Shown here in pieces: positions 20,344-60,686 of a stretch of 64,000 bases of DNA. The notes beneath the pieces are model-generated. The model saw only the letters and a list, made by a program, of their open reading frames with translations. It was not told the DNA's origin and made no database searches. The translations under genes were made by a program, and so were the position numbers. The stretch is from the NCBI GenBank assembly GCA_965204835.1, contig OZ242017.1, positions 290,336-354,335 of the forward strand, written 5' to 3'. Source of the DNA: Dehalococcoidia bacterium (GTDB lineage: Bacteria > Chloroflexota > Dehalococcoidia > UBA2979). Every line of letters begins with the position of its first letter. The first letter of the stretch is position 1.

Positions 20344-20787
20344 TCAGTCCTTGCGGATGATGCGGCCCTGCTTCTTCTCGAGGCGGGCCAGGGCGCGCCC
20401 CTTGTCGGGGTGCGGGTCCTTCACGAGGCCGTAGATCTCGCGGCCTTCGTGGTCTTCTGGGAGGTACTCGGTGATGGGAAGACCTTCCTCATTACAGAAG
20501 AGCAGTCAGTGGCAGTACTTGTATTTCTGCATCTCCTCGCAGGCGCAGATCCACGTCGAGCGCTTCACCTCTGCTTCCTTGTCCTCGTAGAAGTTGCAGG
20601 GACACAGCGGGCGGCCGAGGTCGTCGACGTGCTTGGCGAGCCCGATCACGAGGAACTCGGTGATCTCGCGCTGCGGGTGGAGGTACGTGCCGCTCTTCTC
20701 GGCGAACTTCTCGACGAACTTCCACATCCGCTGCATGGACTTCTCGGACGCCTCCGCGCGGTCGGCGTCGGTTGGCTGTTCGAGCAC
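20344..20787 (-). CDS. Ferredoxin:thioredoxin reductase catalytic-subunit homolog with in-frame UGA (candidate selenocysteine) at the CHC active-site cysteine
   Basis: GTG 20787 with GGGAG SD. ...GLAKHVDDLGRPLCPCNFYEDKEAEVKRSTWICACEEMQKYKYCH-[TGA 20508..20506]-LLFCNEEGLPITEY...RIIRKD, then TGA 20346..20344. The motif CPC-x16-CxC-x8-CH[U] matches the FTRc spacing CPC-x16-CPC-x8-CHC. The frame stays open 53 codons past the UGA. A tRNA-Sec lies in the same window. Confidence 0.75.
20472..20491 (-). promoter_or_regulatory. SECIS-like hairpin downstream of the FTRc UGA
   Basis: RNA UGAGGAAGGUCUUCCCAUCA begins 14 nt after the UGA. Stem GGAA/UUCC extends through UG/CA with one bulged A. Apical tetraloop is GGUC. 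Folded by eye only. Confidence 0.4.
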
Positions 20788-21000
20788 GGTCGGCTCCCGC
20801 CCGTTCCTGGGTGCGTGGCTACAGAGTCAGAGTATCACGACGCCCTCGCTGGCACCGCGCCGCCGCGAGGCCGTCGTGCGTGGAGTGGACAGTCGCGTGG
20901 GGCGAGCAGCAGGCCGTCCGAGCCATCCCGAGTGACCCGCGCCGCAAGCGAAGGAGCCGCTCCCTGTGTCTCCCTGGGGGCGACCCATCCGGCAAGCGAA

Positions 21001-21026
21001 CGGGCCGCCCGGTTGGGGGCGGCCCG
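21001..21026 (-). terminator. Hairpin after groEL (candidate terminator)
   Basis: CGGGCCGCCC-GGTTGG-GGGCGGCCCG, a 10-bp GC stem starting 26 nt past the groEL stop. Poor U-tract. Confidence 0.5.
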
Positions 21027-21051
21027 CCGTGTGTTCGCGGTGGACGCGAGG

Positions 21052-22755
21052 CTACATGCCGGGGATGCCCATGCCGCCCGGCATGCCGCCGCCCATGCCG
21101 CCTGGCATCCCGCCACCCATGGCGGAGGGGTCGGCGAGTCCGGCGGTGACCTCCGGACCCTGGCGGATCGGCTCGGGGGCCTCACCCACCAGGCTCTCGG
21201 TGGTCAGCATCAGCGCGGCCACGGAGACGGCGTTCTCCAGCGCGGCACGCGAGACCTTGACCGGGTCCAGGATGCCGAGGTCGTACATGTCACCGAGCTC
21301 GCCGCGGGCGACATCGTAGCCGGTGTTGGCCTCGGCGGTGCGCACGTCGTCGACGATCACGGAGCCCTCGAGGCCCGCGTTGGAGACGAGCCGCCGCAGC
21401 GGCGACTCCAGCGCGCGCTGGAGGATGCGGACGCCGACCTCTTCCTCGGGGTCGGTCATCGCGTCGGCTGCTGCGGCAAGCGACTCCTGGACGCGGATGT
21501 AGGCGACGCCGCCGCCCGGCACCACGCCCTCCTCGACGGCGGAGCGGGTGGCGGAGAGGGCGTCCTCCACGCGGAACTTCTTCTCGCGCACCTCGGTCTC
21601 GGTGGCGCCGCCCACCTTGATGACCGCCACGCCGCCGGCGAGCTTCGCGAGGCGCTCCTGGAGCTTCTCGCGGTCGTACTCGGAGGAGGCGTCCTCGATC
21701 TGGGCGCGGATCTGGCGGATGCGCGCCTGCACGGCCTCGTCGGAGCCGAAGCCGTCGATGATCGTGGTGCGGGACTTGTCGGAGACCACGCGGTAGGCGC
21801 GGCCCAGGTCGGCGATCTGCGCGTCCTGGATGTTCCGGCCCATGTCGGCCGTCAGGAACGTGCCGCCGGTGAGCGCCGCGATGTCCTCGAGCGAGGCCTT
21901 GCGGCGGTCGCCGAACGACGGCGCGCGCACGGCGAGGAAGGCAAGGGTGCCGCGCACGCTGTTGACGATCATCGTCTGGAGCGCTTCGCCCTCGAAGTTC
22001 TCGCAGAGCACGACGAGGTTCTTGGTGACCTGGAGCGCCTTCTCGACGATCGGCAGGATGTCGTTCACGGCGGTGAACTTGTAGTCCGTGACGAGGATGT
22101 AGGCGTCCTCGATGACCGACTCCTGGCGCTCCTGGTTGGTGATGAAGTGCGGCGAGATGAAGCCGTGCTCGATCTGGAGGCCGTCGACGAACTCGGTCTC
22201 GTCGGCAATGGACTTGCCGTCCTCGACGGTGATGACGCCGTCCTTGCCGACCTTCTCCATCACGTCGGCGATGAGGTCGCCGATGCGGCGGTCGTTGCCG
22301 GCGATGCCCGCAACGGCGGCCACGGTGTCCTTGCCCTCGACGGGCGAGGCGAGACCGCGCAGCTCGCCCGTGACGACGCGCTGGCCGTGCTCGAGGCCGC
22401 GGCGGATGGCCATGGGATTGGCGCCGGCGGCGATGACGCGCATGCCGTCGGAGAAGATCGCCTGCGCCAGCACGGTGGCGGTGGTGGTGCCGTCACCGGC
22501 CATCTCGTTGGTGCGGACCGCCACCTGCTTCACGAGCTGCGCGCCCATGTTCTCGAAGCGGTCCTTGAGCTCGATCTCCTTGGCGACCGTGACGCCGTCC
22601 TTGGTGATGACGGCGGGGCCGTAGTTCTTGTCGAGCACGACGTTGCGGCCGCGCGGGCCGAGCGTCACGCCGACGGCGTTCGCGAGGATGTCGACGCCGT
22701 CCTTGAGGGCGTGCCGCGCTTCCTCGTCGAACTTCAGCTCCTTGGTGTTGGGCAT
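21052..22755 (-). CDS. groEL: Chaperonin GroEL
   Basis: 567 aa. ...[12 protein letters not shown]..., GGM-repeat tail [20 protein letters not shown]. Confidence 0.98.
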
Positions 22756-58962: not shown

Positions 58963-59009
58963 GCTGCCCGGCTCACGCGCTGCCCGCCCTCGATTGCCCG
59001 GAGCGTGAG

Positions 59010-59825
59010 ATGTGCATGGCCATCACACTAACACTACGGCGGGGCGGCCTCGCCGGATGTACCCTCGACGGGGAGGGGTCGATGACCATCGAGTCCCAGC
59101 GTGTGCCGCCCGGCCGTTCGCCCGTGCTCATCGCGCACCGCACCACGATGGGCCTGCGGCCCGAGAACACGATCGTCGGCATCGAGGCAGCCGTCGCGTC
59201 GGGCGTCAACGGCGTCGAGATCGACGTGCGCGCCACGCGCGACGGCGTCGCGGTGCTCATGCACGACGGCTCGCTCGCCCGCACCACGGGCGACGCGAGG
59301 GACGTCGAGGACGTCACGCTCGACGAGCTGCGCGCGCTGCGGGTGCTCGACCCGCACGGTGACGTCGGCCCGCAGCCCATCCCGACGTTCGCCGAGGCGC
59401 TGGCGGCGACGGCTGCCACGCACCTCGTGATCGAGGTGAAGCAGGAGGGCATCGAGGACCTCGTGGCGCGCGCCGTCCGTGACGCGGACGCGCTCGGGCG
59501 CTGCTCGCTGTGCGCGTTCGACGCGGGCGTGTGCGCGGCCGCGGCTGCGGCCATGCCGGGGATGCCGGTCTCGCTCCTCGCCGCGCCGAACCGCGAGCGG
59601 GCCGAGGTGCTGGCGCAGGCCGCCGACCTCGGCCTCGCGGGCGTGAGCCTGCACTTCTCGATGGTCGACGAGCAGCTCGTCGCCGAGGCTCACGACGCGG
59701 GGCTGACGGTGGCGACGTGGACGGTCAACGAGGAGCCCGACGTGCGTCGCATGCACGCCGCGGGCGTGGACCTGATCTGTGGCGACTACCCGGCACGCCT
59801 CGTCGAGGTCGTGCGCGGCGAGTGA
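59010..59825 (+). CDS. Glycerophosphodiester phosphodiesterase family protein
   Basis: VLIAHRTTMGLRPENT and VEIDVRATRDGVAVLMHD motifs. The start may be ATG 59082. Confidence 0.85.
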   Translation: MCMAITLTLRRGGLAGCTLDGEGSMTIESQRVPPGRSPVLIAHRTTMGLRPENTIVGIEAAVASGVNGVEIDVRATRDGVAVLMHDGSLARTTGDARDVEDVTLDELRALRVLDPHGDVGPQPIPTFAEALAATAATHLVIEVKQEGIEDLVARAVRDADALGRCSLCAFDAGVCAAAAAAMPGMPVSLLAAPNRERAEVLAQAADLGLAGVSLHFSMVDEQLVAEAHDAGLTVATWTVNEEPDVRRMHAAGVDLICGDYPARLVEVVRGE

Positions 59826-59846
59826 CGGCCAGGATGGCGCGGGGCG

Positions 59847-60686
59847 CTACTCCAGCGTGAGCGGCGTGTCCTCGCGGTTCGCCCACTCGCCCATCGAGCC
59901 GTCGTAGTTGCGTGCGCGGTCGTTGCCGAGCATGCGCAGGACGAAGGCCGCGAACGCGGCCCTGATGCCACCCTGTCAGTAGGTGACGGTCGCCACCTCC
60001 GGGTCGATCCCCGCGCCCTCGATCAGCTCCCGGATCTCGTCGAGGGGCCGGAAGCGGCGTGACGGCGGCCCCTGCATGAGCCGCAGCCACTCGAGGTGCT
60101 TCGCGCCCGGCACGTGGCCGGCGCGCTGGTTGCCGCGGTCGTTCGAGCCGTCCCACTCGCCGTCGGAGCGCGTGTCCCAGATCTGCGGTGCGTCCGGCGC
60201 GTCGAGGCCAGCCTCGACGATCGCCATAAGCTCGTCGACCGTGCAGTGCGCGCCGCGGTCCACGCGCGCCTCGAACGTCGCGGGCGCGGGGCGCGCGGGC
60301 GCCGAGGTGAGCGGGCGGCCCTCGTGCAGCCAGGCGTTGAGGCCGCCGTCGACGACGCGCACGTCGCGGTGGCCGAAGTGCTCGAAGACCCACCACACGC
60401 GCGCGGCGTGCAGCGAGGCGTTGTCGTCGTAGATGACGACGGGCGTGTCGTTGGAGATGCCGAGGCGGCCCATGAGGGCCTCGAACTCCGGCGGGGTCAT
60501 GACCAGGCGGCTGTTCTCGCGGCCCTTGAGGTAGGGGTGGGGGAGCCCGACGGAGCCGGGGATGTGCGCGCGCCGGTAGGCGACCGCCTCCCCGGCGTCG
60601 ATGAGCGCGAAGTCCGTGCCGACGCCGTCGAGGTGGTCGGCGAGCCAGTCGGTGGTGGTGAGCAGCTCGGACTGCGCGGTCGTCAT
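59847..60686 (-). CDS. Two-domain rhodanese (thiosulfate/3-mercaptopyruvate sulfurtransferase-like) with in-frame UGA (candidate selenocysteine) at the catalytic cysteine
   Basis: ATG 60686 with GAGGAGG SD. ...RRAHIPGS... (domain 1), ...RAGHVPGAKHLEW...DPEVATVTY-[TGA 59978..59976]-QGGIRAAFAAFVLRMLGNDRARNYDGSMGEWANREDTPLTLE, then TAG 59849..59847. The UGA sits where the active-site loop C-x-x-G-x-R-(A/S) starts. The downstream 42 codons are the expected end of a rhodanese domain. Confidence 0.78.
59944..59963 (-). promoter_or_regulatory. SECIS-like hairpin downstream of the rhodanese UGA
   Basis: RNA AGGGCCGC-GUUC-GCGGCCUU: 6 GC pairs plus G-U and A-U closing pairs, GUUC tetraloop. It starts 12 nt after the UGA. 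Folded by eye only. Confidence 0.45.

Follow-up and report, generated by a model that had tools for sequence, protein, structure and literature searches.

The stretch of DNA analyzed here, referred to below as the window, comprises 64,000 nucleotides (nt) of the forward strand of contig OZ242017.1 (positions 290,336 to 354,335) in assembly GCA_965204835.1 of a Dehalococcoidia bacterium (UBA2979). It has a G+C content of 71% and carries selC, the gene for the selenocysteine (Sec) tRNA, together with two genes whose reading frames are each interrupted by one in-frame TGA: one encodes a homolog of the catalytic subunit of ferredoxin-thioredoxin reductase (FTR), here called FTRc, and the other encodes a tandem-domain rhodanese. 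The closest species-level relatives of the window are Chloroflexota/Dehalococcoidia metagenome-assembled genomes (MAGs) throughout, and the nearest public contig (ENA ERZ25068475 contig_1, 2.9 Mb, from an uncultured Dehalococcoidia MAG) is 96 to 98% identical to it at the nucleotide level, the match falling at roughly 1.065-1.129 Mb of that contig. Because the identity is only this high, several window proteins have no exact public match: no public record matched the exact products of the right-edge genes (63061-63846, with two possible starts, and 61667-62914), of the left-edge adk, or of the rhodanese gene in its form of 236 amino acids (aa).

FTRc lies at 20344..20787 on the minus strand and, when translated through its single TGA, yields a protein of 147 aa that matches Pfam PF02943 with 85.4 bits against a threshold of 22 and the FTR chains in the PDB with an E value of 3e-25. 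Its motifs are CPC (residues 62 to 64), CAC (81 to 83), and CHU (92 to 94, with U for the residue at the TGA), and the residues around the last of these read KYCHU-LLFCNEEGLPITEYLPEDHEGR, with Cys98 at position +4. An earlier note on this DNA had placed the TGA (20508..20506, minus strand) at a catalytic Cys, and both homolog and structure alignments bear this out. In 19 full-length Cys homologs, the column of the TGA holds the third residue of CHC, an invariant Cys, and FTRc residue n aligns with residue n-7 of the Synechocystis FTR (1DJ7), whereby CPC 62-64 corresponds to Cys55/Cys57, CAC 81-83 to Cys74/Cys76, and CHU 92-94 to Cys85/His86/Cys87. In FTR, Cys55, Cys74, Cys76, and Cys85 are the ligands of the [4Fe-4S] cluster, and Cys57 and Cys87 form the redox-active disulfide, in which Cys57 is the exposed nucleophile and Cys87 makes contact with the cluster. 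As the FTRc UGA aligns with Cys87, Sec94 would therefore sit at the cluster-proximal redox position. The fold was assessed by proxy, using the AlphaFold model (pLDDT 89.6) of a Cys homolog that is 72% identical to FTRc (P0025); this model superposes on the FTR catalytic chains 7BZK and 1DJ7 with a root mean square deviation of 1.0 to 1.2 Å over about 88 residues and a TM score (target) of 0.77.

For comparison, we assembled FTRc loci from the 80 best-matching GTDB species representatives, all of them Chloroflexota and most labelled Dehalococcoidia, and added three contigs carrying the window's own 93-aa product to give a set of 83 loci. The codon in question is TGA in 69 of the 80 species-representative genomes and TGC or TGT in the remaining 11, and in every TGA-bearing locus the frame stays open to the normal C terminus. 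The Sec form is also carried by the closed Dehalococcoidia chromosomes OZ244720.1 and OY839116.1. Pairwise differences downstream of the TGA amount to 0.13, 0.08, and 0.42 at codon positions 1, 2, and 3, respectively, a pattern that is the signature of translated sequence under coding-type purifying selection, as judged from these alignments. Of the 83 loci, 81 have CPC as the first FTRc motif and two were not scorable, and a second Sec is seen in none.

Downstream of the FTRc TGA, we identified a hairpin of the bacterial Sec insertion sequence (SECIS) type at 20473..20493 (minus strand), supported by folding and by homolog comparison. It reads AAUG(A)GGAA-GGUC-UUCCCAUC, with a bulged A and the loop GGUC; the stem spans nt 16 to 36 counted from the U of UGA, the loop occupies nt 25 to 28, and the first stem base lies 13 nt after UGA. 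Sec forms, unlike Cys forms, show no variation in the hairpin core GGAAGGUCUUCC; the 12-nt core GGAAGGTCTTCC (stem GGAA/UUCC, loop GGUC) is invariant in 68 of the 69 Sec-form species and missing from all 11 Cys forms. The Cys-form genes specify E-G-L-P as well, but through a variety of synonymous codons, such that third-position entropy across codons +6 to +9 is 0 to 0.11 bits in Sec forms versus 0.68 to 1.79 bits in Cys forms, and the codons flanking the core show about 1 bit in both. The core is built from codons that are each rare within their synonymous sets (GAA, 5.1%; GGT, 3.6%; CTT, 1.5%), and because all three are rare, a GAA-GGT-CTT run would be very unlikely to arise without selection on the RNA. 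Covariation points in the same direction: in the bulged model, 91.3% of alignment cells are paired and 32 are doubly changed, and its covariation score of 0.181 compares with 0.083 in shuffled alignments (none of 500 reached it) and with at most 0.063 when the partner strand was slid. Examples from the lower stem are the changes from AUG/CAU to ACG/CGU and from UCGGAA..UUCCGA to CCGGAA..UUCCGG. A model without the bulge was rejected on its poorer fit (86.9% paired, score 0.020).

A further residue varies together with the TGA. Cys at +4 after Sec (CHULLFC; codon 20494-20496 in the window) is present in 69 of 72 TGA-bearing loci, that is, in 66 of the 69 species representatives and all three added contigs, whereas all 11 Cys-form loci have Val at this position (CHCLLFV). 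The +4 codon switches between TGT and TGC, and selection therefore acts on the amino acid. Two Sec-form loci with Val at +4 (L042 and L064) both branch beside the Cys clade. A same-face contact between Sec and Cys98 in an i/i+4 helical arrangement was considered and found to be unsupported, as residues 93 to 99 are nonhelical in the P0025 model.

The second interrupted gene, at 59847..60686 on the minus strand, encodes a tandem-domain rhodanese (a sulfurtransferase of the COG2897/SseA type) of 279 aa when its one in-frame TGA (59978..59976) is translated, and PF00581 (Rhodanese) matches this protein twice. The active-site loop reads U237-QGGIRA (VTYU-QGGIR), and the earlier assignment of this TGA to a catalytic Cys likewise stands, with U aligning to the catalytic Cys of Thermus rhodanese (1UAR; E value of 2e-41) and of Mycobacterium tuberculosis SseA (3HZU). 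Protein database matches include many entries of 231 to 242 aa covering 84 to 85% of the query, the pattern of truncated records, as well as full-length proteins of 272 to 280 aa. In a comparison set of 80 metagenome loci, the catalytic codon could be scored in 78 and is TGA in 59 (extending to proteins of only about 40% identity) and TGC or TGT in 19. Differences downstream of the TGA are 0.23, 0.19, and 0.51 at codon positions 1, 2, and 3.

The rhodanese SECIS candidate, at 59944..59963 (minus strand), is an 8-bp hairpin, AGGGCCGC-GUUC-GCGGCCUU, with the loop GUUC and a 12-nt spacer after UGA; its stem spans nt 16 to 35 from the U of UGA, and its loop spans nt 24 to 27. Hairpin and spacer are kept in nine close-clade sequences (including L169, L170, and L171), in which 90.3% of cells pair, with compensatory changes at pairs 18-33 (CG/GC) and 21-30 (GC/CG) and a covariation score of 0.278 versus 0.079 in shuffles (0 of 500). 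In the window, the stem gains three pairs through AGG, a seldom used Arg codon (1.7%). The loop sequence, which contains GU in Sec forms (GUUC, AGUU, or GGUC), is CCAU or CCUG in high-GC Cys forms. The earlier note had described GC-rich hairpins with G/U-containing tetraloops just past both UGAs; the tetraloops (GGUC and GUUC) hold, as does the distance, with each hairpin starting 12 to 13 nt after its UGA, but the GGAA/UUCC core of the FTRc hairpin is not GC rich. Both hairpins resemble the SECIS element of Escherichia coli fdhF, which also lies within the coding sequence 3' of UGA and has G-U in its loop at a set distance; the GGUC loop of FTRc and the one bulged base in its upper stem are further points of likeness. 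Compared with fdhF, the loop lies farther from UGA by 3 nt in FTRc and by 1 nt in the rhodanese, and the stems are shorter.

The selC gene lies at 24932..25028 on the plus strand. The only tRNA that ARAGORN called in the window is this tRNA-SeC(tca), with anticodon UCA, a long variable arm, and an encoded CCA, and it scores 73.7 bits with Rfam RF01852, whose gathering score is 47 (E value of 3e-13), which upholds the earlier description of a structurally complete tRNA-Sec. The consensus fold across nine species has a 6-bp D stem (11-16/21-26), a 9-bp variable arm, and a 5-bp T stem, with compensatory changes at four pairs, and the discriminator base directly before CCA is G73. In eight other species, selC lies no more than 10 kb from a Sec-form FTRc; it is near a Cys-form FTRc in none of 11 loci.

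Elsewhere in the window, TGA is the ordinary stop codon of 23 other predicted genes, which rules out a global reassignment of UGA. We also scanned the window for coding signal continuing past a TGA and found no third interrupted gene; the sole other match is antisense to a real gene.

The conservation of UGA, the coding-type selection downstream of it, the conserved and covarying hairpins, and a tRNA-Sec with G73 all support the suggestion of the earlier note that this organism has a Sec-decoding trait. On this sequence evidence, we consider it very likely that this high-GC Dehalococcoidia genome decodes UGA as Sec at specific sites, and we infer that Sec itself is inserted at both UGAs.

Several observations weigh against this conclusion. 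In searches with the E. coli proteins (tblastn), selA, selB, and selD were not found in the 64-kb window or in the 171 loci fetched in total, with only weak matches to a TypA GTPase (L126) and to ThiL (L032), and about 8 kb past the left window edge, read in a same-species contig that is 96 to 98% identical in nucleotides, consists of ribosomal genes. The acceptor stem of the tRNA has seven canonical pairs followed by G8 opposite G87 and thus departs somewhat from the classical 8/5 branch; the acceptor/T branch has 12 canonical pairs rather than 13, an arrangement kept in all nine species compared. Branches of 12 bp are unusual in tRNA-Sec and are on record from Chloroflexi (PMC5389517). The folding energy of the single sequences is not significant for either hairpin (z of -0.98 for FTRc and -0.26 for the rhodanese), and the significance of the hairpins comes from homolog comparison, not from folding energy alone. 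Taken alone, the rhodanese hairpin also counts for less than that of FTRc, since high-GC Cys-form rhodaneses can fold a hairpin at the same site (the R-A-A codons being self-complementary) and are set apart by loop sequence only.

Among the alternatives, the one that survives best is that UGA is recoded to something other than Sec, either to Cys by a selC*-type tRNA-Cys, to unconverted Ser, or by near-cognate readthrough. Such a reading would accommodate both the failure to find selA, selB, and selD and the nontextbook acceptor/T branch, and selC*-type tRNAs that accept Cys and insert it at UGA do exist in nature, marked by U73 (PMC5389517). However, the window tRNA has G rather than U at this position, which fits SerRS/Sec identity and not that of a Cys-accepting selC*, and it scores far above the tRNA-Sec gathering threshold. 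Moreover, FTR and rhodanese are both established selenoprotein families, and the class is documented as Sec utilizing, with dozens of selenoproteins per genome (PMC13326102). We therefore regard non-Sec recoding as quite improbable.

Even less probable is the possibility that the genes are pseudogenes and that both TGAs arose from TGC or TGT, through sequencing error or inactivating mutation. A single base change does turn a Cys codon into TGA, and one FTRc locus is probably such a case: L046 (L046:8089-8145), from a MAG of 1.2x coverage, is the only TGA-bearing locus without the GGAAGGTCTTCC hairpin and falls inside an otherwise Cys-only clade, and its TGA is probably a sequencing error or a pseudogene mutation and not a Sec codon. 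In contrast, the same TGA recurs in 69 of 80 species-level genomes for FTRc and in 59 metagenome loci for the rhodanese, from unrelated samples, the sequence downstream is under coding-type selection, and the hairpin is kept only in forms that have TGA; taken together, the TGA conservation, hairpin, and codon-position data effectively refute an origin by error or decay, and the independent sources of these assemblies speak against a systematic error common to them. That the TGAs are true stops with functional products of 93 and 236 aa and separate small open reading frames (ORFs) downstream is equally hard to credit. Gene callers do report just these products, but truncation would deprive FTRc of one of its two redox-active residues and the rhodanese of both the catalytic residue and the active-site loop. 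The segments downstream lack a start codon and a ribosome-binding context of their own, and in all homologs they continue the frame of the upstream part.

If Sec is decoded as in the standard bacterial pathway, selC would supply the tRNA-Sec, SerRS would serylate it, and SelA would convert the product to Sec-tRNA with selenophosphate provided by SelD. SelB would then bring Sec-tRNA to a UGA followed, 12 to 13 nt downstream within the coding sequence, by a hairpin with G-U in its apical loop. FTRc would be a single-subunit homolog of the FTR catalytic chain in which Sec94 replaces Cys87, the cluster-proximal member of the redox-active pair, with Cys retained at its partner, residue 64 (Cys57 in Synechocystis), and at all four [4Fe-4S] ligand positions; Sec94 and Cys64 would then form a selenenylsulfide adjacent to the cluster as the active site. 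Such an enzyme would most likely reduce the neighboring thioredoxin with ferredoxin-type electrons. In the rhodanese, Sec237 would take the place of the persulfide-carrying catalytic Cys, probably making the protein a sulfur or selenium carrier that may be partnered by an adjacent cysteine-desulfurase-like enzyme.

A thioredoxin gene (19274..19600, plus strand; TIGR01068, 125 bits against a cutoff of 97) converges with the FTRc operon, and a thioredoxin ortholog lies just downstream of FTRc in 32 of the 69 Sec-form loci and in none of the 11 Cys-form loci. Because the ortholog adjoins Sec-form FTRc and never the Cys form, the genomic context suggests that the neighboring thioredoxin is likely the substrate of the FTRc-like enzyme. 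Between the two, 29 nt downstream of FTRc, lies a gene on the minus strand (19752..20315) assigned to OmdA by Pfam and to DUF8412 in public gene calls; its cotranscription with FTRc is possible, and it is present in only eight related loci. No gene for a variable subunit was noticed near the FTRc locus.

Beside the Sec rhodanese are an F420-dependent LLM oxidoreductase gene (60805..61644, plus strand; NCBIfam TIGR03619, 224 bits) and, on the minus strand at 61667..62914, a gene for a class V aminotransferase of the cysteine desulfurase (SufS-CsdA-SclA) type, which scores 168 bits with the SufS subfamily and remains under every curated cutoff. The order GDPD phosphodiesterase, Sec rhodanese, LLM oxidoreductase, and class V aminotransferase (59082-62914) is the same in L169, L170, and L171. 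As a general partner of the Sec rhodanese, the aminotransferase had to be rejected, as the pairing is limited to the close clade and does not extend to distant marine loci. Within that clade, the neighborhood suggests a possible sulfur or selenium relay.

Some other features of the window were recorded in passing. A complete NADH dehydrogenase operon of the nuoA-N type and, following it, a gene for an arylsulfotransferase-like beta-propeller protein (52704-53897) together span 42328-53897, and the same adjacency of operon and propeller gene recurs in L169. Immediately after it is the stretch of lowest GC content in the window (53898-54916, about 1 kb, GC of 0.634), which has no confident gene; an ORF within it (54346-54885, minus strand) has only subthreshold matches to UDG and HTH domains. 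For an ORF of 758 aa at 35763-38039, the matches are limited to weak ones to LRR and fn3, with none in NCBIfam; its third-position GC is 0.77 versus about 0.95 and the local GC is 0.66 to 0.67, and it may be a recent acquisition or else not a real gene. A type II toxin-antitoxin pair at 33857-34566 consists of a FitA-like RHH antitoxin (86 aa) and an adjoining PIN-domain toxin (145 aa). At another site, a PIN_3 toxin gene of about 455 nt (L081:14003-14457) lies between an RHH antitoxin-like gene and a methyltransferase gene in the nearest public contig; it is missing from the window (site 16528-16855), where the RHH gene is left an orphan, a strain-level indel relative to L081.

Both selenoprotein families, and the Sec trait in Dehalococcoidia, were already known, and in this respect the novelty implied by the earlier note was overstated. 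FTR was described in 2008 by Zhang and Gladyshev as a new family of selenoproteins in the Global Ocean Sampling (GOS) metagenome (PMC2398784), and the rhodanese-related sulfurtransferase (COG2897) has been known as a selenoprotein since the 2005 analysis of the Sargasso Sea (PMC1088965). The window rhodanese shares with the COG2897 forms, listed as "UxxG" selenoproteins in a 2026 review (PMC13188914), the tandem rhodanese architecture, Sec at the catalytic Cys, the motif U-Q-G-G, and a common occurrence of such forms in marine metagenomes; we see no substantial difference and regard it as a new member from a high-GC Dehalococcoidia lineage. Two Dehalococcoidia MAGs are among the ten most selenoprotein-rich bacteria in BSepDB, with 49 and 46 genes (PMC13326102), and because of this, further selenoproteins elsewhere in the present genome, as the earlier note had expected, are plausible.

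FTRc has in common with the GOS selenoproteins, which come from uncultured bacteria, its homology to the FTR catalytic chain, Sec in place of a redox-active Cys ("CxU"), and a bacterial SECIS element. However, the deposited GOS sequences are a divergent double-Sec form, CPU...CIU (Dataset S2 of PMC2398784), whereas FTRc has Sec at the second position only and differs further in its C-terminal extension of about 45 aa, its covarying Cys at +4, and its linked thioredoxin gene. A curated model of the double-Sec form exists (NCBIfam NF041072, "FtrB family double-selenoprotein"), and membership of FTRc in it was rejected on a score of 40.1 bits against a cutoff of 160 together with the CPC first motif; FTRc falls instead within a single-Sec subfamily (CPC...CHU) of the same superfamily. 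With the cyanobacterial/plant FTR catalytic subunit (1DJ7, 2PVO, and 7BZK), FTRc shares the fold (as judged from the Cys-homolog model), the CPC-X16-CxC-X8-CHC spacing, and thioredoxin as the likely substrate; unlike that subunit, it has Sec in place of Cys87 and belongs to a nonphotosynthetic host. We tentatively propose, at somewhat less than even chances, that FTRc represents a distinct single-Sec FTR subfamily, undescribed in the papers found and unmatched by NF041072, which would be the majority form among the close relatives sampled (69 of 80) and would be characterized by Sec only at the Cys87 position, a coevolved Cys at +4, a dedicated thioredoxin, and frequent proximity to selC.

As for annotation, the earlier note had stated that the ORF track cut the two proteins to 93 and 236 aa and that the frames run on to natural C termini at 147 and 279 aa; translation gives exactly these lengths, and the truncated products appear both in the ORF listing and in public gene calls. 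Both proteins are thus truncated in public records, and the same error occurs in dozens of Chloroflexota genomes, an instance of the recognized problem that annotation pipelines truncate selenoprotein genes. As a consequence, the capacity for thioredoxin reduction and sulfur transfer is undercalled in an abundant and uncultured class.

The finding is, for the most part, known biology correctly recognized in a new genome; it changes neither what is known of the genetic code nor the existence of FTR and rhodanese selenoprotein families, and what may be new in it is the single-Sec FTR subfamily with Cys at +4 and a linked thioredoxin gene. The case for Sec in persulfide carriers gains a further example in the rhodanese. 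For the unusual mechanism of Fe-S-assisted disulfide reduction, an FTR whose only Sec occupies the position that interacts with the cluster amounts to a natural experiment. If the proposed subfamily is real, its members would carry a selenenylsulfide beside a [4Fe-4S] cluster, with possible Fe-Se contact in the one-electron intermediate, and the main thioredoxin-reducing enzyme of an abundant clade would have been systematically misannotated because gene callers cut it to 93 aa.

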